The position numbers and the translations under genes are program-made. The notes beneath the pieces were generated by a model, which was given only the letters and a program-made list of their open reading frames with translations, was not told where the DNA came from and searched no databases. Positions 4,898 through 35,751 of a DNA stretch of 64,000 nt are shown one piece after another (the stretch's first letter is position 1; each line of letters begins with the position of its first letter). The DNA is from Myxococcales bacterium (GTDB lineage Bacteria > Myxococcota > Myxococcia > Myxococcales > Myxococcaceae), in assembly GCA_030696265.1 (NCBI GenBank), contig JAUYSO010000017.1, forward strand, positions 8,368-72,367, written 5' to 3'.

Positions 4898-6181
4898 GTG
4901 AAACCCCTCTGGCTCGTCGTACTCCTTGCTGGGTGTCCACCGAACGACTCCACCTGCCGGACCGTTCCTACTGGCCGGGCGACGCCGACGTCGCTGCTGC
5001 TCATGGCCGGCGCGCCGCAGACCGTGTCGTTCGCGTTCGACAGCCCTGCGTGTCAGCTCCCCGAAGGCGCGGTGACGGCACGGCCAGTGCTCACGACGGC
5101 GTCTGGCGCGACCATGCCTGTGATGGTGGGCCGGATCGTTCAAGTCACACAGCCTGTCGATGGAGTTGCGTCATTTCGAGGCTTCTTTCAGAGCAGCATC
5201 GAGTTCGACCTCGTGTTTCCGGCGCTGACGCGAGGCACGTACTTTCTGCAGCTCTTCGTCGAGCCGACCATCATCGCGATGCAGATTCCCGTCTTCGTCG
5301 CGAGCGATCTCCGGGCTGATGCAGGCACGCTGGTCTCGTTCGACGCGCCGTGCTCCCTGCCCGCTCGGACTCGCGCCGGCACGATGTTCTGTGGCTTCGA
5401 CGGCGGCTTCGTCGTGCGCACTGGCTCGTCGAAGACCACCATGCCTGCAGTCACCAGGGTCATCGCCGTCGGGAACGTCGCGTGGACGCTCGACGCCTTT
5501 GCGCAGCTGCGTCGCTACGAAGACAGGCCCGATGGTGGGCTGATGCTGACCGCGACTGCGAGCGAGGCGCGGGGACTCATCGTCGCCGATGAAGACGCCG
5601 CTGCGCTCAGCGAACCCGACTTCAACACCACTTTCACACGGTTCGACTACGACCCGGCGCGTGGTGCACTCACCCGCCGCCCCTTGCCCTTGCTCGCCGA
5701 GGACTGGCTGCTCGATGGCGCTGAGTTCGTGGGCGTCTCGCGGCGCGCCACCTGCACTGGACCCGAGATGTGCCGTGACACGACGGCCGACTTCATGGGC
5801 CTGCTTGGGTACGACGCACAGTTCCTCTGGTTGTTCGACAACCTCGGCAGTTTCGGGCGCACCGACGAGCCGACTCGAATGCTCCTGCTGCGGCGGCCAG
5901 TACGCCTCGACGGCGGAGAGTCCTTCACCACGCCGATTCCGCCTGGCTGGGCACCCGCGGCGACAAATGCGCGACGCGAGGTCGGCGGTGAGCTGCCTCC
6001 GTTGTTGTACTCGCTGCCAGACGCCGGCGTGCCTCGCACGATGTTGGTGCGCCAGACGGCAGAAGGAACGTCGTTCGACGTGCTCCCTGCAGACCCGGTC
6101 GGCTTCAGCCGCGACTGGCTCATCTTTGCGGGGAGCACCAGCCGCGAGCTCCGCCTCGTTCGGCTTCCGCTCTCGCCATGA
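4898..6181 (+). CDS. lipoprotein, paralog C (function unknown)
   Basis: Same leader, gagtgtcgggagcgggtaagaacccgaggcgtgaaac, before GTG 4898. Lipobox VVLLAGC. C-terminal motif EGTSFDVLPADPVGFSRDWLIFAGSTSRELRLVRLPLSP. Stop overlaps the NUDIX start as ATGA. Confidence 0.75.
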   Translation: MKPLWLVVLLAGCPPNDSTCRTVPTGRATPTSLLLMAGAPQTVSFAFDSPACQLPEGAVTARPVLTTASGATMPVMVGRIVQVTQPVDGVASFRGFFQSSIEFDLVFPALTRGTYFLQLFVEPTIIAMQIPVFVASDLRADAGTLVSFDAPCSLPARTRAGTMFCGFDGGFVVRTGSSKTTMPAVTRVIAVGNVAWTLDAFAQLRRYEDRPDGGLMLTATASEARGLIVADEDAAALSEPDFNTTFTRFDYDPARGALTRRPLPLLAEDWLLDGAEFVGVSRRATCTGPEMCRDTTADFMGLLGYDAQFLWLFDNLGSFGRTDEPTRMLLLRRPVRLDGGESFTTPIPPGWAPAATNARREVGGELPPLLYSLPDAGVPRTMLVRQTAEGTSFDVLPADPVGFSRDWLIFAGSTSRELRLVRLPLSP

Positions 6182-6735
6182 CCCTCCTCGACTTGCTCGC
6201 CGGCCACCACCCTCTCGATGACAAGGAGCGCGTCGATCTCGCGTCGATGCGCGACTTCGCGAAGAGCCTCGCCGAGCCGTTCTCACGCGCCCAGTGGCCC
6301 GCGCACTTCACCGGCAGCGCGGTGGTGGTGACGCCCGATGGCACGCGCGTCTGCCTGGTCCTGCACGCGAAGCTCCACCGCTGGCTGCAGCCCGGTGGGC
6401 ACGCCGACCCGGCAGACGATGGCTCGATGGAAAGGACGGCGCTGCGAGAGGCGCGTGAAGAGACGGGAATGGACGTCGCCCTGCACCCTCACGCACCCCG
6501 GCCGCTCGACGTCGACGTGCACGTCATCCCCGCGCGCAAAGCCGACCCGGAGCACCGTCACCTCGACGTGCGCTACCTCGTCGTCGCGCACAACCCCGAT
6601 GCGCTGAAGCACGACCCGAGCGAGTCGCATGGCGCGCAGTGGCTGAGCTGGGAGGACGCCCTGGCCCGCGCCGATGAAGCCCCGCTGCGTCGAATGCTCG
6701 AGAAGGCGCGCGCGGTCGTCACGCGAGATCGATGA
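6178..6735 (+). CDS. NUDIX hydrolase
   Basis: Nudix box GGHADPADDGSMERTALREAREETGMDV fits Gx5Ex7REUxEExGU. ATGA start/stop overlap with paralog C. Confidence 0.85.
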   Translation: MTLLDLLAGHHPLDDKERVDLASMRDFAKSLAEPFSRAQWPAHFTGSAVVVTPDGTRVCLVLHAKLHRWLQPGGHADPADDGSMERTALREAREETGMDVALHPHAPRPLDVDVHVIPARKADPEHRHLDVRYLVVAHNPDALKHDPSESHGAQWLSWEDALARADEAPLRRMLEKARAVVTRDR

Positions 6736-7264
6736 AGAACCGCACGCCGAGCAGCACCTGACTCGAGAAGACGTCTCCGCGGAGCAGCGGAAAACTGCCT
6801 CGAACGAAGACCTGGGCCACGCCGTCGAAGTTGCCCCACGAGCGATGCAGCTTCGCGGTGAGCTCCGGGCCGACCCGAATCGTCCATGCGTCGGGCACGG
6901 TGCGGCCCTTGAGCCCGACGCCCACGAACGCGCCGAGCGAGAACCACCGCCACGCCACCGGGCTCGCCGACGCGACGACGGTGCCCTCGAACGTTCCGGG
7001 CGCGAGCTGAAGCTCACCCTCGAGGAGCGCGCTGAACTTGAGCGCGCCGTGACGCTCCGCGGCCGAGTGGAACACCGCCAGCCCCAACCCAAGCGACAAC
7101 CGGCCACCGAAGCCCAGCCGCTCCCACAACCCCGACGCCCCGAGCGTGGGTCCGAGCGCGACGTTCTTGAACAGGCTCACCTCGTCGAAGCCGTGCTCCA
7201 CACCGGTGAGCGGCCCCGCGTGCGCAAGCCCACAGAGGAACATGACGACGAGCGCCCACCGCAT
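6719..7264 (-). CDS. hypothetical secreted/outer-membrane protein
   Basis: Signal peptide MRWALVVMFLCGLAHA. Alternating-hydrophobic, Gly-rich beta-strand-like sequence. Convergent with and slightly overlapping the NUDIX 3' end. Confidence 0.55.
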   Translation of the reverse strand: MRWALVVMFLCGLAHAGPLTGVEHGFDEVSLFKNVALGPTLGASGLWERLGFGGRLSLGLGLAVFHSAAERHGALKFSALLEGELQLAPGTFEGTVVASASPVAWRWFSLGAFVGVGLKGRTVPDAWTIRVGPELTAKLHRSWGNFDGVAQVFVRGSFPLLRGDVFSSQVLLGVRFFIDLA

Positions 7265-23969: not shown

Positions 23970-24004
23970 CTGCGGGCTCCTCTCTTCGTGTTGGGAGTAG
24001 AACA

Positions 24005-24697
24005 ATGACCAAACGGTCACGACAAAACAAGCCCCCGGCGAAGAAAAAGACAGCCATCGAGGCCGAGGTGCGTCGCCCGGGGCCGGTTGGCGGGGTGCGC
24101 GACACCAACCGCAGGGAGAAGGCCGCCGCGATCAAAGAGGCGGCGCTCCACCTGTTCCTGGAGCGCGGCATCGACGCGGTGAGCGTCGACGACATCATGA
24201 GCCGCGCGGGTATGGCGAAGGGCGGCTTCTACCGGTACTTCGAGACGCAGACCGCGCTGGTGACCGAGATCATCGACGGCGCGCGGAAGTTGATGACGGA
24301 CGCGCTCGAGACCTGCAGCGTCGACCTTCGCACCGCCTCGACGCGTGACGCGCAGTTCGCCGCGTACCGAAAAGTCGGTGACGTGGTGGCGACGTTGCTG
24401 ATGGAGCACCCCGGCGAGGTGCGCCTCTATCTCCAGGAGTGCCGCGCTCCCGACAACGGCCCGCGTGGCCCCATCGTCGAGCTCTCACGCACCGTCTCGA
24501 AGTACGCCATCAGCATCACGGCGCAGGCGCAGGGCCACGGCATCTTGAAGCCGATTCCGGTGCCGGTGAGCGCGCTGACGGTCGTGGGCGCCTCCGAACG
24601 ACTGCTGCTCGCGGTGCTGCAGGAGGAGGACATCGGCAACCCGCTCGAAGTTCCAGAGGCGCTCGCGACGCTGATCCTCGACGGGCTCAAGGCGTGA
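24005..24697 (+). CDS. TetR family transcriptional regulator
   Basis: N-terminal HTH KEAALHLFLERGIDAVSVDDIMSRAGMAKGGFYRYFETQ. Divergent from the hydroxylase gene, 35-nt intergenic. Confidence 0.85.
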   Translation: MTKRSRQNKPPAKKKTAIEAEVRRPGPVGGVRDTNRREKAAAIKEAALHLFLERGIDAVSVDDIMSRAGMAKGGFYRYFETQTALVTEIIDGARKLMTDALETCSVDLRTASTRDAQFAAYRKVGDVVATLLMEHPGEVRLYLQECRAPDNGPRGPIVELSRTVSKYAISITAQAQGHGILKPIPVPVSALTVVGASERLLLAVLQEEDIGNPLEVPEALATLILDGLKA

Positions 24698-24767
24698 ATT
24701 CGGGCACACCCGTTCGAGCAGGCTTCGGGCGGTGACGGCCAGTCGGCGGTAGGGTTGAGGCCACACC

Positions 24768-25910
24768 GTGAAGCCGCGCGACGACACACTGTCTTTGTGG
24801 GCGCTCGTCATCAGCCTCGGGCTGCATGGCGGGGCCGCGCTCGTCGTCGCGTTCACGCCCGATCGCGTTCCACCCAGCTCGAGCAGCACCGGCATGACGT
24901 TGGTGGAGATCAGCATCGAGGAGCCGCAGCCGCCGGTGGTCGAGCCGCCACAGCCTCCCGAGCCGAAGGTCTCGCCGCGCGTCGACAAACGCGCGCCGAA
25001 GGTGGTGCCGAAAGCCGCCACGCCCGAGCCGACCCCGGCGCTCCAGAACGATCGGCCGCAGGTCGACGTCCCCGCGACCGAGCCGCTGCGTGCTCCGACG
25101 CCAGACCGGCCAAGCCTCATTCCCGGCGGCGCCTTCGCGCTCTCCCTCGACGCCGGGGTCTTCGAGCCTGACGACGAGCCGCGCGGCCTGCACGCGCCGT
25201 CGGTTTCGAAGGATCTCGTCGGAGCGCTGACGAAGGAGACCATCGGCCGGGGCAAGGTCGATCGCGGCCTCGTGCACCCGTATTACGTGACGCTCGGCAA
25301 GGCGCTCATCAAGAACTGGGACGCCGACCGCGCCGTCTCGAAGAAAGGCCTCGCGGGCTTCGGTGAGCAGTTCGTGCAGAACTCGAAGGTGTTCAACGAG
25401 ATCTGGCTCGACCGCGCGTCGCAGTTCGGCGCCACCGGCGCGCCGATGGATGCGCCCGTCTCGAACGACAACGCGTCACGAAGGACGGCGACGGTGACGA
25501 ACAACATTCAGGGCATCGGCGGCGTCGATCTCGAGGCCAGGAAAGAGGTCTCTCGTCAGATGCGGGAGCAGTTCAAGGCCACCCGCCGCGCCACCATTCG
25601 CGTCACCCAGAACACCGACGGGCGGCTGGTGAAGGTCGAGCTCGTCGCGCCCTCGAACGACGCCGCCGTCGACAAAGAGGCGATGGCCGACGTGCGCGCC
25701 GCCGCCGAGAAGCTGCCCCCGCCACCCGCCGAGGCGCTCGAGGGCCGCACCGAGCTGATCAGCACCTGGGCCTTCGAGCTCGTCGTGAGCATCTCGCCGC
25801 CCATCCCCACCTTCACCTTCGAGTTCGACGAGGCGCTCGGCTTCATCGACGCGCGGCTTCCCCTCGACCGGCGCATCTACAAGAAGGTGCGCCTCGTCTC
25901 AGTGGACTGA
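24768..25910 (+). CDS. TonB family protein (N-terminal TM anchor, Pro-rich spacer, C-terminal TonB-like domain)
   Basis: GTG start with GAGG 7 nt upstream. TM helix LWALVISLGLHGGAALVVAF. PPVVEPPQPPEPK. C-terminal RVTQNTDGRLVKVELVAPSNDAAVDKEAMADVRAAAEKLPPPP. Confidence 0.55.
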   Translation: MKPRDDTLSLWALVISLGLHGGAALVVAFTPDRVPPSSSSTGMTLVEISIEEPQPPVVEPPQPPEPKVSPRVDKRAPKVVPKAATPEPTPALQNDRPQVDVPATEPLRAPTPDRPSLIPGGAFALSLDAGVFEPDDEPRGLHAPSVSKDLVGALTKETIGRGKVDRGLVHPYYVTLGKALIKNWDADRAVSKKGLAGFGEQFVQNSKVFNEIWLDRASQFGATGAPMDAPVSNDNASRRTATVTNNIQGIGGVDLEARKEVSRQMREQFKATRRATIRVTQNTDGRLVKVELVAPSNDAAVDKEAMADVRAAAEKLPPPPAEALEGRTELISTWAFELVVSISPPIPTFTFEFDEALGFIDARLPLDRRIYKKVRLVSVD

Positions 25911-25917
25911 ACCTTTC

Positions 25918-26367
25918 ATGGCCGACAAACGACGCTTCGATCTCTTCGCCGAGCTGCTCGTCACCCGCTTCCCCGAGGTCAAGCGCGTGTTCGACGTGGC
26001 CGGTGGCATGGGGAAGCTGAACGAAGCGCTCGTCGCGCGGGGGCGCTCCTGTCTGACCTTCGACCGCCGGCACAAACACCTGCCCGTCGAATACGCCGAG
26101 CGTGACTTCACCCTCGACGAGCCGTGCACCGCCGACGCGGTGGTGGGCATGCACGCCGACGGCGCGACACGAGTCATCATCGAATACGCGGCGAAGCACG
26201 GCCTGCCGTTCGCCGTCGTGCCCTGCTGCTCCGACAACTCGATGCCCTACAAGCCGTGGATGCGGCACCTGGCAGAGCTCGGCACCTCATTGGGAATGAC
26301 GGTCGACGAAGTGACGCTCCCGATGGAAGGCCGCGCCCGGGTCATCATCGGCCAACGCGGAGTTTGA
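25918..26367 (+). CDS. small class-I (Rossmann) SAM-dependent methyltransferase-like protein
   Basis: Motif I VFDVAGGMGKL; acidic beta2 terminus TFD. 8 nt after the TonB-family gene. Confidence 0.45.
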   Translation: MADKRRFDLFAELLVTRFPEVKRVFDVAGGMGKLNEALVARGRSCLTFDRRHKHLPVEYAERDFTLDEPCTADAVVGMHADGATRVIIEYAAKHGLPFAVVPCCSDNSMPYKPWMRHLAELGTSLGMTVDEVTLPMEGRARVIIGQRGV

Positions 26368-26399
26368 CCTTCGTCAACTCCGTGATTGGGTTCGCTCCC

Positions 26400-27047
26400 A
26401 TGAATCCAACGCTTCGACTCTCGACGCTCGTCCTCTTCATTTCTGCCTGTGGTCCCGTCATGACGGAGCCCGATGCCGGGAGCACCGGCGGTGGTCTCGC
26501 TGCAGGCGGGGGCTCGGCAGGTGGCTCGGCGGCGGGTGGCTCGGCGGCGGGTGGCTCGGCGGCAGGTGGCTCGGCGGCGGGCGGCTCCGCGGCAGGCGGC
26601 TCCGCGGCAGGCGGCTCGGCGGCTGGTGGCTCGGCGGCTGGCGGCTCGGCGGCAGGTGGCTCGGCGGCAGGCGGCTCGGCAGCGGGTGGCTCGGCAGCGG
26701 GTGGCTCGGCAGCAGGTGGCTCGGCGGCAGGTGGCGCTGCCGGAGGGGGAACCGCACAAGTCAGCTTCATGTCGCAGGTCGCACCGATTCTCGCGGCACG
26801 ATGTAGCACCTGCCATTCGACCGACACCGTCGCCGCAGCCAACACCTACGTGCGCGGCACGAGCTCATGCGGTGGCCCGCGCCTCGTCGCGAGCGACGCC
26901 ACGGCGAGCTTGCTCTTCCAGAAAGTCGCAGGGACGCAGACGTGTGGCGGACGTATGCCCCGAGGCTGCTCGGGCAATTCCTGTCTGCCTCAAGTGCAGA
27001 TCGACCTCATTCGCGACTGGATCAACGCCGGCGCGCCCAACAACTAG
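26400..27047 (+). CDS. lipoprotein with (GGSAA)n linker and a C-terminal c-type-heme (CxxCH, PSCyt1-like) domain
   Basis: Lipobox LFISACG. About 16 GGSAAGGSAA repeats. VAPILAARCSTCHS has a CxxCH heme-binding motif. Confidence 0.55.
   Translation: MNPTLRLSTLVLFISACGPVMTEPDAGSTGGGLAAGGGSAGGSAAGGSAAGGSAAGGSAAGGSAAGGSAAGGSAAGGSAAGGSAAGGSAAGGSAAGGSAAGGSAAGGSAAGGAAGGGTAQVSFMSQVAPILAARCSTCHSTDTVAAANTYVRGTSSCGGPRLVASDATASLLFQKVAGTQTCGGRMPRGCSGNSCLPQVQIDLIRDWINAGAPNN
26496..26750 (+). repeat. intragenic tandem repeat, 15-nt period (ggctcggcggcgggt), about 16 copies
   Basis: Near-perfect 15-mer iterations encoding GGSAA. Confidence 0.85.
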
Positions 27048-27133
27048 GTTTCAGTGGCGTCACCTTGCCGTTTCCTGACGAGTGAAAGGGTCACGATCCT
27101 GCCTGCTGTTTGCGGGTAGGGTGGCGCCGCTCG

Positions 27134-29341
27134 ATGCGCCCGGTCATCGCCTTTGCAGCCTGCCTGTGGTCGGCCTCCGCGTTCGGGGCCATCTACGAGG
27201 CCGTCGTCGACGCCGACAACGAAGAAGACATCTTCGCGATGGTGCAGCGAGGCGACATCTCGCAGGACACGGGCGACACCCTGCTCGAGCTGCTTCGCGA
27301 AGGCGTCGACCTGAACTCGGCGCCGCGCGAGAGGCTCTATGACTTGCCCGGCCTCACCTACGACGACGTCGACAAGCTCATCCTCTACCGCACGCAGAAG
27401 GGCCGCATCGAAGACCCGGCCGAGCTCGTCGGCGCCGGGGTGATGACCGCCGAGCAGCTCATCGGCATCGCCGTCTACATCTCGCTCGAGCCGGTGAAAG
27501 AGAAGCTGCCAATCGGCGGCAAGCTTCGCCTGCTCACCCAATACACGCTGACCGATTCGCTCGCGCCGCCGGCGCTCTTCGCGGCCCGGCTCAGGGGCCC
27601 GCTCGACCTGACCGCCGGCGCCATGCTCGTCACCAGCCGGCTCGACCCGGTGCAGCCCCGCTTCGACCAGACGCTCCAGGGCCTCGCGACCGAAGGCTAC
27701 AGGTACCGCCTCGACGCGCCGCGCCTGTTCCTGCAGTGGCTCAACGGCAACCGCCGCGTCATCGTCGGCACCTTCACCATCGGCTTCGGCGAGCGCCTCA
27801 CGCTCGACAACACGCGCCGGGTGACCCCGCGCGGCCTCTACCTCACCGACGACTTCAGGCGAAACCAGGACCTCTCGACCCTCTGCCGCACCAGCGTCGA
27901 CACCGGCGCCACGCCGCCCCCCGAGTGTCAGGGTGACAGCCGCTACGTCACCGCCGACTACGCGACGCGCGACGCTTTCCGTGGCGTCGCCGGCAGCATC
28001 GAGAACCTCGACCTCGGCGACCAGCGCTCGCTCTCGCTCTACGGTTTCCTCTCGTACCAGTCGCGCGGCGTGTACCAGTACGATCTGTACGATCGCGCCA
28101 CCTGCCTCGACCCTTCGTCGAGCGACTCGGACTGCAGCTCGCCGCGCATCTCCATCCTGAACCCGCAGGACCCGAGCACCCCATGGCGGCTTCGCTACGC
28201 CACCCTGCCTGGCTTCTTCGACGAGCTCTCGGCCGGCGGCCACGTCGACTTCAAGCCCAACTACGCCCTTCGCTTCGGCATCACGGGGTACGGCGCGGTC
28301 CCCTTCTTCAACACCGTGCCTCCAGGCAGCGCGGTGCAGCCCGACTTCCAGGACACCTCGCGCTACCCCAACGGCGGCGCCTACGGAGCCATCGGCGTCG
28401 ACGCGCAGGCCGTGCTCGGCCCCGTCAACCTGCACCTCGAGGTGACGCGCAGCTTCGACAAGGCCATCAACAACCAGGGCGGCGGCTTCGGCGCCGTGCA
28501 GCGCACCACCTGGGCGCCCAAGGGCCACGAGCTCGAGGTCGTCTTCCGCTATTACGACAACCGGTTCCTCAACCCCTACGCACGGCCGTTCTCAGGGCCC
28601 GACGAAGACGCCGGCCAGCGGGCGCGCAACGAGCTCGGCGCGCGGGTGCGCTACTTCGGCAAGTTCAGTCGCGACTGGCAGTTTCGCGCCACCGCCGACT
28701 TCTGGACGCTGCCCTTCGCCGGCCGGGGAGGCCGCGCAGGCACCACCAACCTCATCCTCCTCACGCGCGTCGACTTCACGGGCTTCAGGGGCTTGAAGCC
28801 CAGCATCTGGTTCCGCCTGAGCGACAGAAACCTCGCCGTCAGCCAACGCGGGGTCTGCAGCCAGACCCAGGTGGTCTCGGGCATGCCCGAGTTCTTCAAC
28901 ACCCCGGACGACTTCGACGGCGAGGTCACCTTCTTCACCTGCGACTCGTACCGCGTCGTGCAGCGCATCGACGTGCGCCCCTTCGGCAAGCGCCTGGGCT
29001 TCACCGAGCAGGCCTCGTTCTCGTGGCGCGACGACCTCTCGAGCGCGTACCGCGAGAACTTTCGCAACGACCTGCAGGTCTGGGTCGAGGCGATGAGTCA
29101 GCCGGTCGACTGGCTCTCGCTGCGGCTGCGCTCACGCCTGCGCGCCGAGGGCATCGACAGCCCCACCACCTACGAAGACTCGCTGTGGACGTTCTTCGAG
29201 GCCGCGTGGATTCCGTTCAAGGGCACGCGCGTCGCGGCGCGCTACGACCTGTTCGTGTGGCTCGACCAACGGGCCTCGACCTTGCGCCGGCAGCCCTCTC
29301 CAGAGCATCGTTTCCTCCTCGACCTCCGCACCAGCTTCTGA
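27134..29341 (+). CDS. predicted outer-membrane beta-barrel protein with an N-terminal ComEA-like helix-hairpin-helix (DNA-binding) domain
   Basis: Signal peptide MRPVIAFAACLWSASAFGA. HhH: VDLNSAPRERLYDLPGLTYDDVDKLILYRTQKGRIEDPAELVGAGVMTAEQL. Then ~600 aa of alternating-polarity strands rich in G/Y/F/R. Ends ...FLLDLRTSF, a C-terminal Phe beta-signal. Confidence 0.7.
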   Translation: MRPVIAFAACLWSASAFGAIYEAVVDADNEEDIFAMVQRGDISQDTGDTLLELLREGVDLNSAPRERLYDLPGLTYDDVDKLILYRTQKGRIEDPAELVGAGVMTAEQLIGIAVYISLEPVKEKLPIGGKLRLLTQYTLTDSLAPPALFAARLRGPLDLTAGAMLVTSRLDPVQPRFDQTLQGLATEGYRYRLDAPRLFLQWLNGNRRVIVGTFTIGFGERLTLDNTRRVTPRGLYLTDDFRRNQDLSTLCRTSVDTGATPPPECQGDSRYVTADYATRDAFRGVAGSIENLDLGDQRSLSLYGFLSYQSRGVYQYDLYDRATCLDPSSSDSDCSSPRISILNPQDPSTPWRLRYATLPGFFDELSAGGHVDFKPNYALRFGITGYGAVPFFNTVPPGSAVQPDFQDTSRYPNGGAYGAIGVDAQAVLGPVNLHLEVTRSFDKAINNQGGGFGAVQRTTWAPKGHELEVVFRYYDNRFLNPYARPFSGPDEDAGQRARNELGARVRYFGKFSRDWQFRATADFWTLPFAGRGGRAGTTNLILLTRVDFTGFRGLKPSIWFRLSDRNLAVSQRGVCSQTQVVSGMPEFFNTPDDFDGEVTFFTCDSYRVVQRIDVRPFGKRLGFTEQASFSWRDDLSSAYRENFRNDLQVWVEAMSQPVDWLSLRLRSRLRAEGIDSPTTYEDSLWTFFEAAWIPFKGTRVAARYDLFVWLDQRASTLRRQPSPEHRFLLDLRTSF

Positions 29342-29347
29342 CCCACC

Positions 29348-30478
29348 ATGATCTCGCTCCCCCTTCGCCTTCTCGCCGTCACCGCGCTCCTCCTGGCGCT
29401 CTCGTGCGCTGGCGTCACCACGGAGCAGTCCAAGCGCTTCACGAAGGACGAGACCCGCTCGCTGCTCAAGCGCCTCGAGACCGTCAGCCTCGAGCTCGGC
29501 GAGTTCCCCATCGAGGGCGCCTCGTCGGTGCTCGACGGCGACACCATCAAGGTCAAGGGCCTGCCAGCGTCGCTGCGTCTGCTGGGCCTCGACACCGAAG
29601 AGACGTTCAAGAAGGACTCCGAGCGCGCGGCGTTCGCGGCGGGCTGGGAGCAATACAAGAAGCAGATGCAGGGAACGTCGTCGCGGCCGGCGAAGTACGC
29701 CACGCCACTGGGCGAAGACGCCAAGCACTACGCGCAGGCCTTCTTCGAAGACGTTCGCGAGGTGCGCATGGAGCGCGACCACCCCGGCGAGATCCGCGAC
29801 TTCTACAACCGCTACCTCGCCTACGTGTTCGCGAAGAAGAACGGCCAGTGGGTGAACTACAACGTCGAGTGTGTGCGGGCCGGCTTCTCGCCCTACTTCG
29901 TGAAGTACGGCCGCAGCCGCCGCTTCCACAAAGAGTTCGTCGACGCCGAGCGCGAGGCGCGTGAAGGCCAGCGCGGCATCTGGAAGCAGGGCGCCATGGC
30001 CTACCCCGACTACGAGGAGCGCCTGAAGTGGTGGGCCGAGCGCGAGGCCGTCATCACCCGCTTCGAGAAGGCGGCCGTCGAAGACCCGGAGCACTACATC
30101 GCGCTCACCCGCTGGGACGCGATGCTGAAGCTCGAGAGCAAGGTCGGCCAGGAGGTGACGATTCTCGGCTCGGTCAGCGACCTGAAATACAGCGAAGGCA
30201 CCGGGCCCTCGGTGGTGAAGCTCGCCCGCACCCGCACCAACGACTTCGACGTCGTCTTCTTCGACCGCGACGTCTTGTTGTCCACCGGCGTGCAGTTCAA
30301 GAAGAGTGAATACGTGCAGGTGCGCGGCACCGTGCAGAAGTACAAGAACGAGAAGGGCTGGGAGCGGCTGCAGGTGGTCGTCTCACTCCCCGGGCAGGTG
30401 CTCGCGCCGTCGACCTCGCTCGAGAAGCTGCTGACTGATGATCAGAAACGGGCCGACCGCAGTGAAGAGGATGACTAA
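29348..30478 (+). CDS. staphylococcal-nuclease (SNase/thermonuclease) fold lipoprotein
   Basis: Lipobox LLLALSCAG. SNase motifs VLDGDTIKV and LRLLGLDTEE. 7 nt after the barrel gene. Confidence 0.8.
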   Translation: MISLPLRLLAVTALLLALSCAGVTTEQSKRFTKDETRSLLKRLETVSLELGEFPIEGASSVLDGDTIKVKGLPASLRLLGLDTEETFKKDSERAAFAAGWEQYKKQMQGTSSRPAKYATPLGEDAKHYAQAFFEDVREVRMERDHPGEIRDFYNRYLAYVFAKKNGQWVNYNVECVRAGFSPYFVKYGRSRRFHKEFVDAEREAREGQRGIWKQGAMAYPDYEERLKWWAEREAVITRFEKAAVEDPEHYIALTRWDAMLKLESKVGQEVTILGSVSDLKYSEGTGPSVVKLARTRTNDFDVVFFDRDVLLSTGVQFKKSEYVQVRGTVQKYKNEKGWERLQVVVSLPGQVLAPSTSLEKLLTDDQKRADRSEEDD

Positions 30479-32786
30479 CGTGCCTTCAATTCGAGTGATG
30501 TTCCTGGTGGCGGCCGTCGCGGCCGTGTCGTGTACCCCGCCCGTCGACATGCCCACCGACGCCTGCAAGGGCCGCGTGGCCGGAGACCTCGTCATCACCG
30601 AGCTGATGCTCGACCCCGAGGGCACCGACACAGGCGCCGAGTGGATCGAGATCTTCAACACCCTCGGCACGCCGATCGACCTGCGCGGCTACACCATCAC
30701 CTACCGGCAAGGCACCTCGACGGCGAAGTCGCACACCGTTCGTGCCTCGGTGCAGGTGCCGGCCCGCGGCTACCTCGCGCTCGGTGACGTGCGCTCGGGC
30801 CCCAACCCCTCGTGGATTGGCTACAGCTACGGAGACGATCTCGGCGCGCTCAGCCAGACCTCAGGCACCGTCGCCATTCGCTGCGGCATGACGGCCATCA
30901 ACGAGTACAGCTACTCGCGCGCCGCGCGCTCGGGCCGCTCCCGCATGCTCGGCGGTGGCGTCGACCCCGATGCCTCGCGCGTCTCGAACGAGGCCAACTG
31001 GTGCGACACGCCCACCTCGACCGAGTACACGCCGCGCGGCTACGGCACGCCCGGCGGCCCCAACCCGCAGTGCGCTCCCGAGGCGATGGTCGGCACCTGC
31101 CTGCAGAACGGCATGCCCCGCCCCATCGTCGCGGCCGAGGCCGGAGACCTGCTCATCACCGAGGTCATGGCGAGCCCGAGGGCCGTCACCGACACCCTCG
31201 GCGAGTGGATCGAGCTCTACGCCACCACCGACGTCGACCTCAACGGCCTCGCCATCGCGACGAGCACCAGCCGCGCCACGCTCACCTCTCCTGAGTGCCT
31301 CACGGTGCCGGCGCAGTCGTACAACATCATCGCGCGCTCGAACGACGCCTTCGTCAACGGCGGCCTGCCGAAGGCCGTGGCGACGTTCTCGGTCAGCCTC
31401 TCGTCGGCCAATGAGCGGCTGCGGCTGGTGCGTGGTGATGCCGGCATCGACGACGCCACCTTCTTCGCCTCGCAGACCGGCGTCTCATGGCAGGTGCGAC
31501 CCGAGCTGCTCGCCAACCCCGACGAGATTCTGCCCAGCCTCAACGACACCCCTGACTCGTTCTGCAAAGCCAGCTCAGCGTGGATGGGGAGCGCGGGCGA
31601 CTTCGGAACGCCCGCCGCGGCCAACGGAGCCTGCGCTGCGGACTCTGGCGTCGTGGTGGTGCCCGACGGCGGCCTGCCGACCTTCGACTGCAACGCCATC
31701 GACGGGGGCGACCTCGTCGTCACCGAGGTGATGGTCGACCCGCCCAGCACCGACACCGGCCTCGAGTGGTTCGAGCTCTTCAACACGACGGCCGCGCCCA
31801 TCGACCTCGCGGGCCTCACGCTCACCTACCGCCAGGGCGCGACGACCCCCAGGTCCCACGTCGTGCGCAGCTCCGTCATCGTGCCGCCGGGCCAGGCGGT
31901 CGCGGTCGGCGACGTGCGCACCGGGCCGAACCCCGCGTGGATCAGCTACGCCTACGGCGCAGACCTGGGCGCGTTGAACAACTCGTCGGGCACCGTGGGC
32001 GTTCGCTGCGACACGAAGGTCGTCGGTGAATACACGTGGGTGCGCACGGCGCGCTCCGGGCGAAGCCGCATGCTCGGTGGGCCTGTGACGCCCACGACTG
32101 CGCTCGCTGCGGTCGAGGCCAACTGGTGCGACACGCCGACCAGCAGCGAGTACACGCCTGGCAGCTCTGGCACCCCTGGCGCGGCGAACCCGGTCTGCGC
32201 TCCAGAAGCCATGACGGGCACCTGCCTCGACAACGGCACCCCGCGGCCCATCGTCGCCGCAGAGCCGGGCGACCTCGTCATCACCGAGGTGATGCCAAGC
32301 CCGTCGGTCAGCACCACGGTCGGAACCTGGTTCGAGGTGTACGCCACGACCGACGTCGACCTGAATGGCCTCTCGGTCGCCAACGGCGCAGGCACGCGCA
32401 ACACCATCGCCTCGTCGAACTGCCTGCGCGTGCCGGCGACGACGTACGCGATTCTCGCGCGCAGCGCGAACGCGTTCCTCAACGGCGGGCTACCGCCCCC
32501 CATCGCCACCTTCACCATCGGCATCAGCAGCTCGGGCAACGAGCTGCTGCGGCTCTTCCGGGGTGACGCCGGCATCGACGAGATCTCGTTCTTCCGGTCG
32601 ACGAGCGGCAAGTCATGGCAGGTGCCCGGTGAGCTGCTGATCGACCCGATGCTCATCACGCCCGCCATCAACGACGTGCCGGCGAACCTGTGCATCGCGC
32701 CGAACCGTTTCGCCACCGACGCCGGGCCCGGCGACTACGGCAGCCCGACCGAGCTGAACCCCCTCTGTGACGGCGGCGCGCCCTGA
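30471..32786 (+). CDS. lipoprotein of four lamin-tail-domain (LTD)-like repeats, arranged as an internal ~330-aa tandem duplication
   Basis: ATG 30471 has GAGG 4 nt upstream. Lipobox AAVAAVSCT. LTD signatures LVITELMLDPEGTDTGAEWIEIFN...IDLRGYTI, LLITEVMASP...EWIELYATTDVDLNGL, LVVTEVMVDPPSTDTGLEWFELFN, LVITEVMPSP...WFEVYATTDVDLNGL. Confidence 0.7.
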   Translation: MTNVPSIRVMFLVAAVAAVSCTPPVDMPTDACKGRVAGDLVITELMLDPEGTDTGAEWIEIFNTLGTPIDLRGYTITYRQGTSTAKSHTVRASVQVPARGYLALGDVRSGPNPSWIGYSYGDDLGALSQTSGTVAIRCGMTAINEYSYSRAARSGRSRMLGGGVDPDASRVSNEANWCDTPTSTEYTPRGYGTPGGPNPQCAPEAMVGTCLQNGMPRPIVAAEAGDLLITEVMASPRAVTDTLGEWIELYATTDVDLNGLAIATSTSRATLTSPECLTVPAQSYNIIARSNDAFVNGGLPKAVATFSVSLSSANERLRLVRGDAGIDDATFFASQTGVSWQVRPELLANPDEILPSLNDTPDSFCKASSAWMGSAGDFGTPAAANGACAADSGVVVVPDGGLPTFDCNAIDGGDLVVTEVMVDPPSTDTGLEWFELFNTTAAPIDLAGLTLTYRQGATTPRSHVVRSSVIVPPGQAVAVGDVRTGPNPAWISYAYGADLGALNNSSGTVGVRCDTKVVGEYTWVRTARSGRSRMLGGPVTPTTALAAVEANWCDTPTSSEYTPGSSGTPGAANPVCAPEAMTGTCLDNGTPRPIVAAEPGDLVITEVMPSPSVSTTVGTWFEVYATTDVDLNGLSVANGAGTRNTIASSNCLRVPATTYAILARSANAFLNGGLPPPIATFTIGISSSGNELLRLFRGDAGIDEISFFRSTSGKSWQVPGELLIDPMLITPAINDVPANLCIAPNRFATDAGPGDYGSPTELNPLCDGGAP

Positions 32787-32815
32787 CGCGCTCGAAGCCC
32801 TGGAGCGCAGCGCTG

Positions 32816-33280
32816 GTGATGATGCCCATGGTGGCGGCCTGTGGAATGCCCACGCCACCCAGCCTCTGCGGGCCCTCGACGGCCGTCGTCAGCCGCGCCA
32901 TCGATGGCGATACGCTCGAGCTGTCTGACGGCAAGCGGGTGCGCCTGCTCCTCGTCGACACGCCCGAGTCGACCAACGGCAAGACCGACTGCTTCGGCCA
33001 GCAAGCCGCGCAGTTCACCTCGGACACGGTGACAGGCAAGACGGTGGAGCTCAGCTACGACGAGGCCGGCTGCACCGACCGGTTCGGGCGAACGTTGGCC
33101 TATGTGAAGGTCAACGGCGTCGACCTGAACCGCACGCTCGTCGAGCAGGGCTATGCGTGCACGCTGTACGTGTCTCCATCGGGCGGCGCGCGGCGCGACG
33201 AGTTCGAGACGTACGAGTCGCAGGCGAAGACGAGCCGCCTTGGCTTGTGGGGCGCGTGCACCGTCGTCACCTGCCAGTAG
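32816..33280 (+). CDS. staphylococcal-nuclease (SNase/thermonuclease) fold protein, probably a lipoprotein
   Basis: RAIDGDTLEL and VRLLLVDTPE. N-terminal MMMPMVAACG is a short Cys-containing leader. Confidence 0.75.
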   Translation: MMMPMVAACGMPTPPSLCGPSTAVVSRAIDGDTLELSDGKRVRLLLVDTPESTNGKTDCFGQQAAQFTSDTVTGKTVELSYDEAGCTDRFGRTLAYVKVNGVDLNRTLVEQGYACTLYVSPSGGARRDEFETYESQAKTSRLGLWGACTVVTCQ

Positions 33281-33343
33281 GCGCAGACCATTACACGGAG
33301 GCCGCGCGAGCTTCTCGGCTCGTAAGCAAGGGCCAGCCCAACG

Positions 33344-33910
33344 TCACCGATGCGCGCCCACGGCCTGATCCAGCGCGTCGACCTCGAGGGGGAGCGCGTG
33401 CCGCCGGAACCAGCGCACCAGGTCCATCGCCGTCACCATGCCGCGCAGCTGACCTTCGCTGGTGACGACGGGGACGCGGTCGAGGTCGTGCTCGTCCATC
33501 ACCTGGGCAATCTCTGCGACGGTGGCGCGGTCCGACACGGCCACCACCGACGTCGTCATCGCGTCCTCGACCTCCACGTCGAGTCCGGCTTCAGCGGCGT
33601 GGAGCTCGGAGGTCGAGACCAGACCCACGAGCACCAGGTTGTCGTCGACGACGGGAGCAGACGAGAGGTGGGCGGCGTCGAGCACGGAGAGCGCCTCGGC
33701 GACCGAGAGCTCTGCGTCCAACACGGTCACCAGCGGGCTGACCAGCCCACCGCACAAGCGAAGCCCACAGCGCCCGGCGGCCACACCATGGGCACATGCC
33801 TCGAGCGGGCAGCGCTCCGTGCAGCTGATGGAACGTTCTCCGTCGGGGCTGACCTTCACCAGCCGCCGCTCCCTGAGACAGACCAACTCTTCGTCGACCA
33901 TGGGCTCCAT
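33344..33910 (-). CDS. CBS-domain pair protein with a Cys-rich N-terminal segment
   Basis: Two CBS-like repeats: VTVLDAELSVAEALSVLD...VVDDNLVLVGLVS and TTSVVAVSDRATVAEIAQVMDEHDLDRVPVV. N-terminal CLRE...CTERCPLEACAH...C. Confidence 0.7.
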   Translation of the reverse strand: MEPMVDEELVCLRERRLVKVSPDGERSISCTERCPLEACAHGVAAGRCGLRLCGGLVSPLVTVLDAELSVAEALSVLDAAHLSSAPVVDDNLVLVGLVSTSELHAAEAGLDVEVEDAMTTSVVAVSDRATVAEIAQVMDEHDLDRVPVVTSEGQLRGMVTAMDLVRWFRRHALPLEVDALDQAVGAHR

Positions 33911-34071
33911 CGATGCCTCACACGACTGCGTTGTTCACTGCCCAGGGAGCGGAACGAGTGGTGGGTTGGAGTGTGACACACGGCGACAGACGAAAAGGCG
34001 AGGGCCCCCCCGAAAGGGCGTCACCTGATCCTCATTCATCCGTCAGGGCGGAGCCGCCCCACCGTTCGGCG

Positions 34072-35751
34072 CTACTCCCGGGTGACGGCGCGAAGAATGC
34101 GCTCCCGCCGCTGATCGAGCAGCCTCAGCACCACGGGCAACGTGAGCCGGTACACGGCCCAGGCGAGCACGGCCGAGAAGACGATGAGCAACGCCGTCAT
34201 CACGTTCGGCCCCTGCTTCCCGACGAGCTTCATCGCGGTCGCGAACGGCGCGGTGCCAATCGACGCCGCCGCGAGCCCCAGCATCGACGCCGCGAACGGC
34301 AGCGTGTCGCGACGCTTCAGGTTGGCGTGGAACTTCACGGGGAAATACAGCGACAGGAAGTTGCCCGCGGTGAGCAAGACCGGCACCAGCGCGATGACCG
34401 AGAGCAGCGCGCACGTAACGTCGAGCGCGCTCCCGGCCCGGAAGTACGCCACGTAGAAGACGACGACGAGCACGCCCATCACGCCGCCGACCGCGCCGTG
34501 CACCACGTTCTTCGCGCGCAGCACCTCTCCCACCGGCACCGGCGAGGAGAGGAACACCGTGAAGCCGTGGCCGTCGTAGGCGAACGCGTTCTGCGAGAAC
34601 GTCGAGGACAAGACGATGGCCCCGTACACCGTGAGGCCGCCCATCACCCAGGCGTCGGCTGAGGCCCCGAGAAGGAAGACGAACAGCGCGCGGCCAGACA
34701 GCAGCTTGAGCAGAATCGCGAGCACGAAGGGCACCGAGGCCAGCAGCCGCGCGCGTGGGTTGTTCCAGAGGTCGATGGCCTCGCGCACCACCAACGTCGA
34801 GAACGTGCTCTTCGTGTGCGCGAAGGGGTTCGACGCCCGCGCCTGGTTCGAGATGGAGCCCGCGCGCCCCGAGAAGCGGTGGAACTGCAGCAAGAGCCCC
34901 CACGCCACCACGAGCGCGACGAGGCTGAGTTCGAGCGTGGCGAGCGCGTCGGCCGCCGCGAGCTCGAGCCGCCCCGCCCAGTTCGCGCGCAACAGATGGC
35001 CGAACCACCCGGTGGGAAACCGCCCCAGCGCCAGCGCCGCGTTCTCGATGATGGTGTCGGGCACCGCCGCCGCGCCGACCTCGTTGAGGTGCAGCAGCCA
35101 CTCGGTGTCGACGGCGGGGATGAACGCCGCCACCACGAGGCTCACCACGAAGCCACCGCCAATCAGCTCGGCCGAGCGCGCCTGCCGCAGCAGGTTCAGC
35201 ATCACGTGCAGGCCGACGCGTGAGAGCGCCGCGTTCAGCAGCACGTACGAGGCGAAGCCGACCACCACCAGCGCCCACGACTCGGGCGGCCGGTTCTTCA
35301 GGTACCCCACCGTCGCGCCGACGAGCGGGCCGTAGAAGACGAAGGTGCGTGGCTCGAACAGGCTCGCCAGCGTCGACGCCAACATGAGGCGGAAGCTCGA
35401 GATGGGGAACGCCGAGTAGCGCGACAGCTCCGAGTGGTCGTCGACGCCAGCCGACAACACCGGCCACGTCACCCACGTCGCGCTCGTGACGAACAACAAG
35501 AGGCGAACCAGGAAGTCGCCCCACGCGTCGGAGCCCACCACTACCGGGTGCTGCATGAAGCGGTAGAACATCAGCGCGAGCACGACCGACGGCGAGGCCG
35601 AGAAGGCGAACGCGACGACCGAGAACCAGCGGTGTCTGCCATCGCTGCGGTTGAAGCCGATGGTGAGGCGCAGCTGCCAGAGCAGGACGAGGTGCTGGAA
35701 GAACGACGGAGGTCCGGGCCTTGAAGGCTGTACGGCCCGCTCAGCCTGCAC
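34072..35751 (-). CDS. ABC-2 type exporter permease (multi-pass membrane protein)
   Basis: Many hydrophobic helices. Immediately downstream of, and overlapping, the ABC ATPase gene. Exact start uncertain. Confidence 0.65.
   Translation of the reverse strand: MQAERAVQPSRPGPPSFFQHLVLLWQLRLTIGFNRSDGRHRWFSVVAFAFSASPSVVLALMFYRFMQHPVVVGSDAWGDFLVRLLLFVTSATWVTWPVLSAGVDDHSELSRYSAFPISSFRLMLASTLASLFEPRTFVFYGPLVGATVGYLKNRPPESWALVVVGFASYVLLNAALSRVGLHVMLNLLRQARSAELIGGGFVVSLVVAAFIPAVDTEWLLHLNEVGAAAVPDTIIENAALALGRFPTGWFGHLLRANWAGRLELAAADALATLELSLVALVVAWGLLLQFHRFSGRAGSISNQARASNPFAHTKSTFSTLVVREAIDLWNNPRARLLASVPFVLAILLKLLSGRALFVFLLGASADAWVMGGLTVYGAIVLSSTFSQNAFAYDGHGFTVFLSSPVPVGEVLRAKNVVHGAVGGVMGVLVVVFYVAYFRAGSALDVTCALLSVIALVPVLLTAGNFLSLYFPVKFHANLKRRDTLPFAASMLGLAAASIGTAPFATAMKLVGKQGPNVMTALLIVFSAVLAWAVYRLTLPVVLRLLDQRRERILRAVTRE

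Follow-up and report, generated by a model that had tools for sequence, protein, structure and literature searches.

A predicted lipoprotein of four lamin tail domains encoded between two nuclease genes in a gene cluster conserved in Myxococcota

Our analysis concerns a window of 64,000 nucleotides from a Myxococcales bacterium (assembly GCA_030696265.1, contig JAUYSO010000017.1, positions 8,368 to 72,367) and, within it, a gene whose product is built of four lamin tail domains (LTDs). The GC content of the window runs from 64 to 72%, and a codon-position GC filter leaves four close-set genes on the plus strand, at 27110-29341, 29348-30478, 30438-32786 and 32816-33280, which are separated by 6 nt, by an overlap and by 29 nt, respectively. 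The LTD gene is the third of them. A preliminary description of the same sequence had placed it between two nuclease genes, and this is indeed what we find: the second and fourth genes encode members of the staphylococcal nuclease (SNase) family, with Pfam matches of E = 3.9e-11 and E = 3.8e-23. The first encodes a helix-hairpin-helix (HhH) domain joined to a predicted outer-membrane beta-barrel, and we refer to its product as the HhH-barrel. Our analysis indicates that these genes stay together across the Myxococcota and that the LTD array has changed in length through duplication of a pair of domains.

The LTD gene is a single open reading frame (ORF), 30438-32786, which yields 782 amino acids when counted from the first in-frame ATG. 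Two starts lie further in: ATG 30471 overlaps the stop of the upstream gene, and GTG 30480 has a GAAGAGG-like sequence about 10 nt ahead of it. A 100% identical database protein (P0001), named 'lamin tail domain-containing protein', is 768 residues long, a length that fits GTG 30480. The leader, MTNVPSIRVMFLVAAVAAVS-C, agrees by eye with the usual lipobox pattern, and its cysteine, C21, is at least 90% conserved in alignments with 18 and with 39 relatives; the protein is probably a lipoprotein. The mature chain is strongly acidic (isoelectric point 4.4, net charge -33), as is each of the four LTDs, and this acidity argues against simple electrostatic binding of DNA. It contains 16 cysteines, four per LTD, most of them invariant across orthologs, and together with the lipobox they support an extracytoplasmic location. 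Invariant acidic residues are also present, among them D39, E44, D48, D53, E57 and E60. An antisense ORF inside the gene (31952-32716, minus strand, 254 aa, third-position GC 0.90) is probably a shadow of the LTD sense frame in a genome of 68% GC, and not a gene.

A Pfam search of the protein returned LTD only (PF00932, 139.4 bits against a cut-off of 34.3, E = 7e-41, in four stretches), and neither a nuclease domain nor a known DNA-binding motif. The AlphaFold2 model, computed from a 39-sequence alignment, likewise consists of four beta-sandwich domains, with a predicted local distance difference test score (pLDDT) of 80.9, so the earlier picture of a nuclease-free array with two LTDs in each half stands. 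The linkers between domains are of low confidence and the predicted template-modelling score of the whole chain is 0.35, which leaves the relative placement of the four LTDs undefined in the model. In Foldseek searches the modelled domains match the Ig-folds of lamins A/C and B1 (1ifr, 3jt0, 3gef, 3umn) with probability 1.0 and template-modelling scores of 0.6-0.76, these scores being normalised to the target with a predicted structure as query. At low score the model also resembles invasin-like and GhpA-like rods.

The four domains alternate between two types, and we denote them A1, B1, A2 and B2; any A unit is about 30% identical to any B unit. The two halves of the protein are colinear at an offset of 375 residues or 1125 nt, in agreement with the unit of about 1.1 kb given in the preliminary description, and the peptide strings quoted there all occur in both halves. 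At the protein level the halves are 58% identical (214 of 370 columns), above the 40% that had been named as the least to be expected of a duplication, and the local alignment of one half against the other scores 1108 compared with 43.7 +/- 7.3 in 200 shuffles. Their DNA is 72% identical (718 of 998 positions; 70-75% by repeat search). We found no long near-identical stretches of DNA between the halves: the longest exact run measures 24 nt and encodes EANWCDTP, and the second longest measures 13 nt. These values imply that the internal duplication, of arrangement A-B-A-B, is old, and the terms 'near-exact' and 'near-identical', as first applied to it, do not describe it. Moreover, repeats with 72% DNA identity and a lone exact run of 24 nt make a poor substrate for homologous recombination.

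The gene directly upstream encodes an SNase domain together with an OB-fold-like region, the latter matching the tRNA_anti-codon OB family at E = 0.0023, under that family's cut-off. It begins 6 nt after the preceding gene and overlaps the start of the LTD gene. Aligned to staphylococcal nuclease, its product retains DGDT, R-LL-LDT-E and NRYLAY, and the small SNase downstream, in an alignment to the same enzyme from the PDB (E = 2e-20), retains DGDT, RLLLVDTPE and GRTLAY. As judged from these alignments, both proteins keep the Ca2+-binding and catalytic residues of the family, whose members require Ca2+. The HhH-barrel protein (740 aa) is modelled as a ComEA-like HhH domain with a large outer-membrane beta-barrel behind it, whose last residue is Phe; the 22-strand barrel with plug domain and TonB box that marks TonB-dependent or SusC-type proteins is not seen in it. 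The spacing of the four genes on one strand is operon-like, which supports reading them as a single module. Coordinates are collected in Table 1.

Table 1. Features of the four-gene cluster, in window coordinates; residues are numbered in the 771-aa form of the LTD protein
Feature	Coordinates	Strand	Remarks
HhH-barrel gene	27110..29341	+	first in cluster; predicted secreted; probable start ATG 27131
SNase and OB-fold-like predicted lipoprotein	29348..30478	+	376 aa; lipobox LALS-C
LTD probable lipoprotein gene	30471..32786	+	771 aa with ATG 30471; 768 aa with GTG 30480
Signal peptide and lipobox Cys (C21)	30471..30533	+	leader MTNVPSIRVMFLVAAVAAVS-C; lipobox ...AAVS-C21
LTD A1 (residues 28-203)	30552..31079	+	unit hidden Markov models (HMMs) and alignment
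LTD B1 (residues 206-390)	31086..31640	+	unit HMMs and alignment
Acidic linker between halves, disordered in model	31641..31676	+	pLDDT <50 over residues 393-404
LTD A2 (residues 403-578)	31677..32204	+	unit HMMs and alignment; 60% identical to A1
LTD B2 (residues 581-768)	32211..32774	+	unit HMMs and alignment; 57% identical to B1
Small SNase	32816..33280	+	154 aa; lipobox Cys; unusually short leader

The start of the small SNase deserves a separate remark. Its orthologs carry lipoprotein leaders of 14-20 residues, and from GTG 32816 only 8 residues (VMMPMVAA) stand ahead of the lipobox cysteine. The GTG used as start in one relative (L001) is CCC in this window, and CTG 32783, which overlaps the stop codon of the LTD gene (CTGA), would provide a normal leader, LTRSKPWSAALVMMPMVAAC. 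The short leader, taken with this CTG, suggests that the small SNase may have a non-canonical, translationally coupled start; if not, its leader may be defective.

How general is the cluster? We sampled 80 loci with genes for relatives of the LTD protein, one genome per species and nearly all labelled Myxococcota, and searched the six-frame ORFs of their flanks with the window proteins, so that the denominators below are the loci with enough flank. At 63 of 73 loci a small SNase follows the LTD gene on the same strand at a distance of no more than 300 nt, a homolog of the SNase+OB gene lies directly upstream at 43 of 65, and the HhH-barrel is present at 38 of the 44 loci with at least 4 kb of flank on each side. 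The expectation that orthologs would co-occur with nucleases is thus borne out. When all flanking ORFs were clustered, the only broadly shared families were those of the four module genes, and the competence genes ComEC, DprA and ComF were not among the genes linked to the 80 loci. The linkage looks the same in independent gene calls annotated with precomputed Pfam families. The few loci labelled Nitrospirae, Pseudomonadota or 'Comamonas' are probably errors of binning or labelling.

The genes occur in three arrangements. In metagenome-assembled genomes of Myxococcaceae and Archangiaceae, as in this window, the order is barrel - SNase+OB - LTD - SNase. In Nannocystales, Kofleriaceae, Sandaracinaceae and Polyangia the barrel comes last and a single A-type LTD may come first, giving (single A-type LTD) - SNase+OB - LTD - SNase - barrel. 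In Myxococcus, Corallococcus, Pyxidicoccus, Archangium gephyra and Vitiosangium the order is barrel - LTD - SNase, without the SNase+OB gene. The adjacency of LTD and SNase genes therefore outlasts a rearrangement that shifts the barrel gene from first to last. In some lineages further genes adjoin the cluster. Five loci have a divergently oriented gene for a CNT-family nucleoside transporter and five have one for an adenosine deaminase; two genomes encode a type I phosphodiesterase beside the cluster, and one of these a phospholipase D (PLD)-like protein as well. These neighbours are found upstream at L026, L036, L039, L045, L050, L057 and L063, at 5355-7010 and 15100-16623 of L081, and at 5288-6982 of L082. 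We rejected a phosphodiesterase/PLD link as a general feature of the module, as it is limited to genomes of Sandaracinaceae/Polyangiales.

The best 120 relatives of the LTD protein carry between 3 and 7 LTDs, nearly always with one of A type at the front, the commoner architectures being ABB (26 proteins), ABBB (25), ABABB (22), ABBBB (20) and ABAB (12), with ABABABB found once. In orthologous clusters the number ranges from 2 to 6, from AB to ABBBBB. A divergent terminal LTD occurs in ABB and ABABB relatives and is absent from the clade of the window. Within this clade (orthologs at least 65% identical), units at the same position in different proteins are 72-97% identical, compared with 54-62% otherwise; since each unit is nearest to the same-position unit elsewhere, the A-B duplication predates the clade. 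In bootstrapped neighbour-joining trees of the units, which are short domains, the A units of the window clade, at positions 1 and 3, group together, apart from Archangium-clade units, with 90% support, the B units do so with 89%, and in the ABABABB protein the A units at positions 3 and 5 are sisters (100%). We conclude from these trees that the A-B pair has undergone three or more independent in-register duplications, unless concerted evolution has produced the same pattern. We also considered a single ancient A-B duplication common to the window and Archangium clades and rejected it, since the unit trees favour independent duplications. Ratios of nonsynonymous to synonymous substitution (dN/dS) of 0.10-0.47 against six orthologs show purifying selection on each of the four LTDs. 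The LTD protein nevertheless evolves faster than its SNase+OB neighbour, the matches at rank 120 being about 41% and about 67% identical, respectively.

Thus the preliminary description was right to suspect that LTD number can change, as it does between related genomes, while its view of the present repeats as prone to recombination does not survive their 72% DNA identity. LTD copy number shifts over evolutionary time, but not through near-identity of the repeats as they are now. Repeated duplication of the A-B pair in register offers a clear example of how a domain array evolves in length in a (predicted) envelope protein. At two loci, tandem multi-LTD genes stand inside one cluster (L045, 7551-12253, ABBB+ABBB; L057, 8049-12736, ABB+ABBBB), which points to expansion of the array there by whole-gene plus domain duplication.

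Several known systems share parts of this design. The closest comparison may be ExeM of Shewanella, which carries LTD, OB and EEP domains and whose LTD is dispensable in vivo, though activity in vitro drops without it (PMC6085458). ExeM and Xds resemble the present module in that they degrade extracellular DNA in association with the envelope and combine an N-terminal LTD with an OB-fold and a nuclease. A1 aligns weakly, at its beginning, to the ExeM LTD (NCBIfam NF033680, E = 1.9e-4, 19.6 bits against a cut-off of 1300). However, in ExeM one LTD is fused to OB and EEP domains, whereas here four LTDs form a protein without a catalytic domain and the nucleases are separate lipoproteins of SNase type. 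In the archaeon Haloferax volcanii, Hvo_1477 is a lipoprotein thermonuclease with SNase and LTD domains, and growth on extracellular DNA requires it (PMC3929857, PMC5118699). Like it, and like YokF/YncB of Bacillus, the module would employ lipid-anchored SNase-family nucleases for the use of extracellular DNA; unlike it, the module divides LTD and SNase between genes, has four LTDs rather than one and includes a dedicated outer-membrane barrel. LTD-SNase fusions form a recognised family, as the PADLOC model PDLC01096, described as 'SNc+LTD', indicates. Both SNases of the window match the nuclease part of this model, and the LTD protein and the barrel match no PADLOC model, PDLC01096 included; fused LTD-SNase proteins thus also have an entry in this database of anti-phage defence. 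No LTD-SNase fusion appears among the best 120 relatives of either the LTD protein or the SNase+OB protein. Lacking a catalytic domain, the LTD protein falls outside both the ExeM/Xds and the LTD-SNase fusion families.

The loci for DNA degradation in Izemoplasmatales also code for a large protein with LTD, nuclease and nucleic-acid-binding domains (PMC8289736). Mans et al. 2004 (cited in PMC6085458) already counted multiple tandem LTDs in one protein, secreted or membrane-associated as here, among bacterial architectures. By that listing the LTD gene alone, with its internal duplication, is ordinary; in the citing account the tandem class has no assigned function or partners, whereas here a conserved genomic partnership is defined. 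A final parallel lies in how the parts are divided, and it comes from another phylum. SusC/SusD loci of Bacteroidota place an outer-membrane barrel beside enzyme lipoproteins and a tandem Ig-like non-catalytic lipoprotein (SusE/F), and the logic of barrel, enzyme lipoproteins and tandem Ig-like lipoprotein is similar in the present module.

What, then, might the LTD protein do? We propose, with a probability of roughly one half, that it is a subunit without catalytic activity, a scaffold or spacer, in an envelope-anchored module that scavenges nucleic acid. Four disulfide-stabilised Ig-like LTDs, in the order A1-B1-A2-B2 on flexible linkers, would be anchored in the envelope. The gene would belong to a module of four, probably co-transcribed and conserved across Myxococcota, whose other products are the HhH-barrel with its ComEA-like DNA-binding domain, the SNase+OB lipoprotein and the small SNase lipoprotein. 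Together they would capture and degrade extracellular nucleic acid, be it DNA or RNA of prey or matrix, at the cell envelope and so scavenge nucleosides and phosphate, and the LTD array would position the nucleases, serving as scaffold or spacer and not as an electrostatic clamp on DNA. Intact catalytic residues in the SNases and conserved synteny support this reading, and the nucleoside transporter, adenosine deaminase, phosphodiesterase and PLD-like neighbours found elsewhere support a catabolic role. Acidity, a count of 2-7 LTDs with the N-terminal A type kept, and flexible linkers suggest a spacer over a binder; moreover, the module already has HhH and OB domains for nucleic-acid binding in other subunits. 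We infer the envelope localisation beyond what the lipobox indicates, the contacts with nucleases or barrel, and the physiological role.

Several observations weigh against this proposal. The contact of the LTD protein with the nucleases or the barrel that it would require, like the earlier idea of a scaffold for the neighbouring nucleases, draws its support from synteny only. About 6 of the 44 well-flanked loci have an LTD relative without a nearby nuclease, which means that the family is not obligately linked to nucleases. The catabolic neighbours (transporter, deaminase and phosphodiesterase) are lineage-restricted and absent from this window. Lastly, the LTD of ExeM is largely dispensable for degradation of extracellular DNA (PMC6085458).

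Other readings of the array give it a more active part. It could bind DNA directly, perhaps through bridging Ca2+, as a capture arm that hands DNA to the flanking nucleases: LTDs recur in extracellular nucleases, the invariant acidic residues listed above (D39 to E60) could be metal ligands, and the Ca2+ requirement of SNases is in keeping with this. ExeM without its LTD is, moreover, less active in vitro, in an assay free of membranes (PMC6085458). We consider such an arm unlikely, however, given that all LTDs are acidic (net charge -33), that Pfam recognises only LTD and no known DNA-binding motif, and that the HhH and OB domains of the other subunits already serve nucleic-acid binding. The same acidity, together with the place of the gene directly upstream of a nuclease gene, would suit a DNA-mimicking inhibitor or chaperone that holds the SNases inactive in the envelope until they arrive where they act. 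Known nuclease inhibitors, though, are small proteins that bind their nuclease one-to-one, which fits poorly with a domain number of 2-7, and 16 conserved cysteines with a lipid anchor better match a structural envelope protein; this reading strikes us as highly improbable.

Two further readings take the protein, or the module, away from nuclease positioning or from catabolism altogether. Tandem Ig-like arrays on lipoproteins are typical of adhesins, and an adhesin for matrix or prey (polysaccharide or cell surface), merely co-regulated with the nucleases in predation or biofilm remodelling, would agree with the low-score likeness to invasin-like and GhpA-like rods, with evolution faster than that of the SNase+OB neighbour (about 41% versus about 67% at rank 120), with variable LTD copy number and with relatives outside nuclease clusters. 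Yet the adjacency to the small SNase, at 63 of 73 loci, has held through rearrangements and across orders, beyond what is usual for co-regulation, which makes an adhesin quite unlikely. The ComEA-like domain of the barrel raises instead the idea that the module imports DNA for natural transformation, with the LTD protein as a structural part of a pilus-independent outer-membrane route. ComEA is reported to ratchet DNA into the periplasm in Vibrio (PMC3879209), and transformation of Riemerella requires an outer-membrane barrel plus an HhH protein (PMC8459023). But incoming DNA would not survive two sugar-non-specific SNases whose active sites are intact, ComEC, DprA and ComF are not among the linked genes, and the extra neighbours, where present, are catabolic. 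We hold a role in transformation to be very unlikely.

A bolder variant of the scavenging proposal can be put forward only tentatively, and we would sooner bet against it than for it. Here a Myxococcota-specific outer-membrane machine would forage for or import nucleic acid through the HhH-barrel, whose roughly 24 strands and fused ComEA-like ratchet would pass DNA or its fragments into the periplasm. The two lipoprotein SNases would process the incoming DNA, and the LTD arm would be adjustable, its length of 2-7 domains being retuned by A-B duplication, perhaps to match the thickness of envelope or matrix. ComEA itself is a free or membrane-tethered periplasmic protein, whereas in the neighbour of the LTD gene the HhH domain forms one chain with a barrel of about 600 residues.

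The conserved combination of four genes, with LTD and SNase on separate lipoproteins and an HhH-barrel in addition, appears not to have been described before, and this appears to hold especially for the HhH-barrel. Literature searches on the lamin tail domain in Myxococcus and on a thermonuclease of M. xanthus found nothing relevant. Prokaryotic LTDs have been noted beside extracellular hydrolases since 2004, and their role there is still to be explained. Since the LTD part here is a separate, singly deletable gene in a compact, phylum-wide module, what a bacterial LTD does for a nuclease becomes directly testable. More surprising is the HhH-barrel, which, should it conduct DNA, would give nucleic acid a pilus-independent route across the outer membrane in predators that live on lysed prey.

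Paralogs of the LTD protein exist in other genomic contexts as well. The relatives without nuclease neighbours at L024, L028, L032, L037 and L052 adjoin a MoxR-type AAA ATPase (bpMoxR, PF20030), which belongs to MoxR-vWA-beta-propeller ternary systems.

Within the window, scans of the surroundings returned little. An Rfam scan of 24000-35000 found no RNA family, a sigma-70 scan of 26300-33500 found no promoters, though its consensus may not fit myxococcal promoters, and terminator-like sites over 26300-33500 occur at chance level. Upstream of the cluster, at 26400-27047 on the plus strand, lies a previously unlisted gene for a small lipoprotein with the leader MNPTLRLSTLVLFISAC. It contains about 15 tandem copies of AGGSA (26515-26735; 15-nt period, 14.7 copies, 91% matches), a repeat that, unlike the LTD halves, is truly near-exact and slippage-prone. 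Its Cys-rich C-terminal domain bears a CSTCH (CxxCH-like) motif and may resemble a planctomycete cytochrome-c domain; a Pfam search of the protein gave no match. Close relatives have the gene in the same place (E = 1e-99 in L001). Further upstream, also on the plus strand, are genes for a protein with a TonB_2 C-terminal domain (24768-25910, 380 aa) and for a 149-residue protein of an unnamed family (25918-26367), which are syntenic with the cluster in closer relatives only, at 13 and 11 loci respectively.

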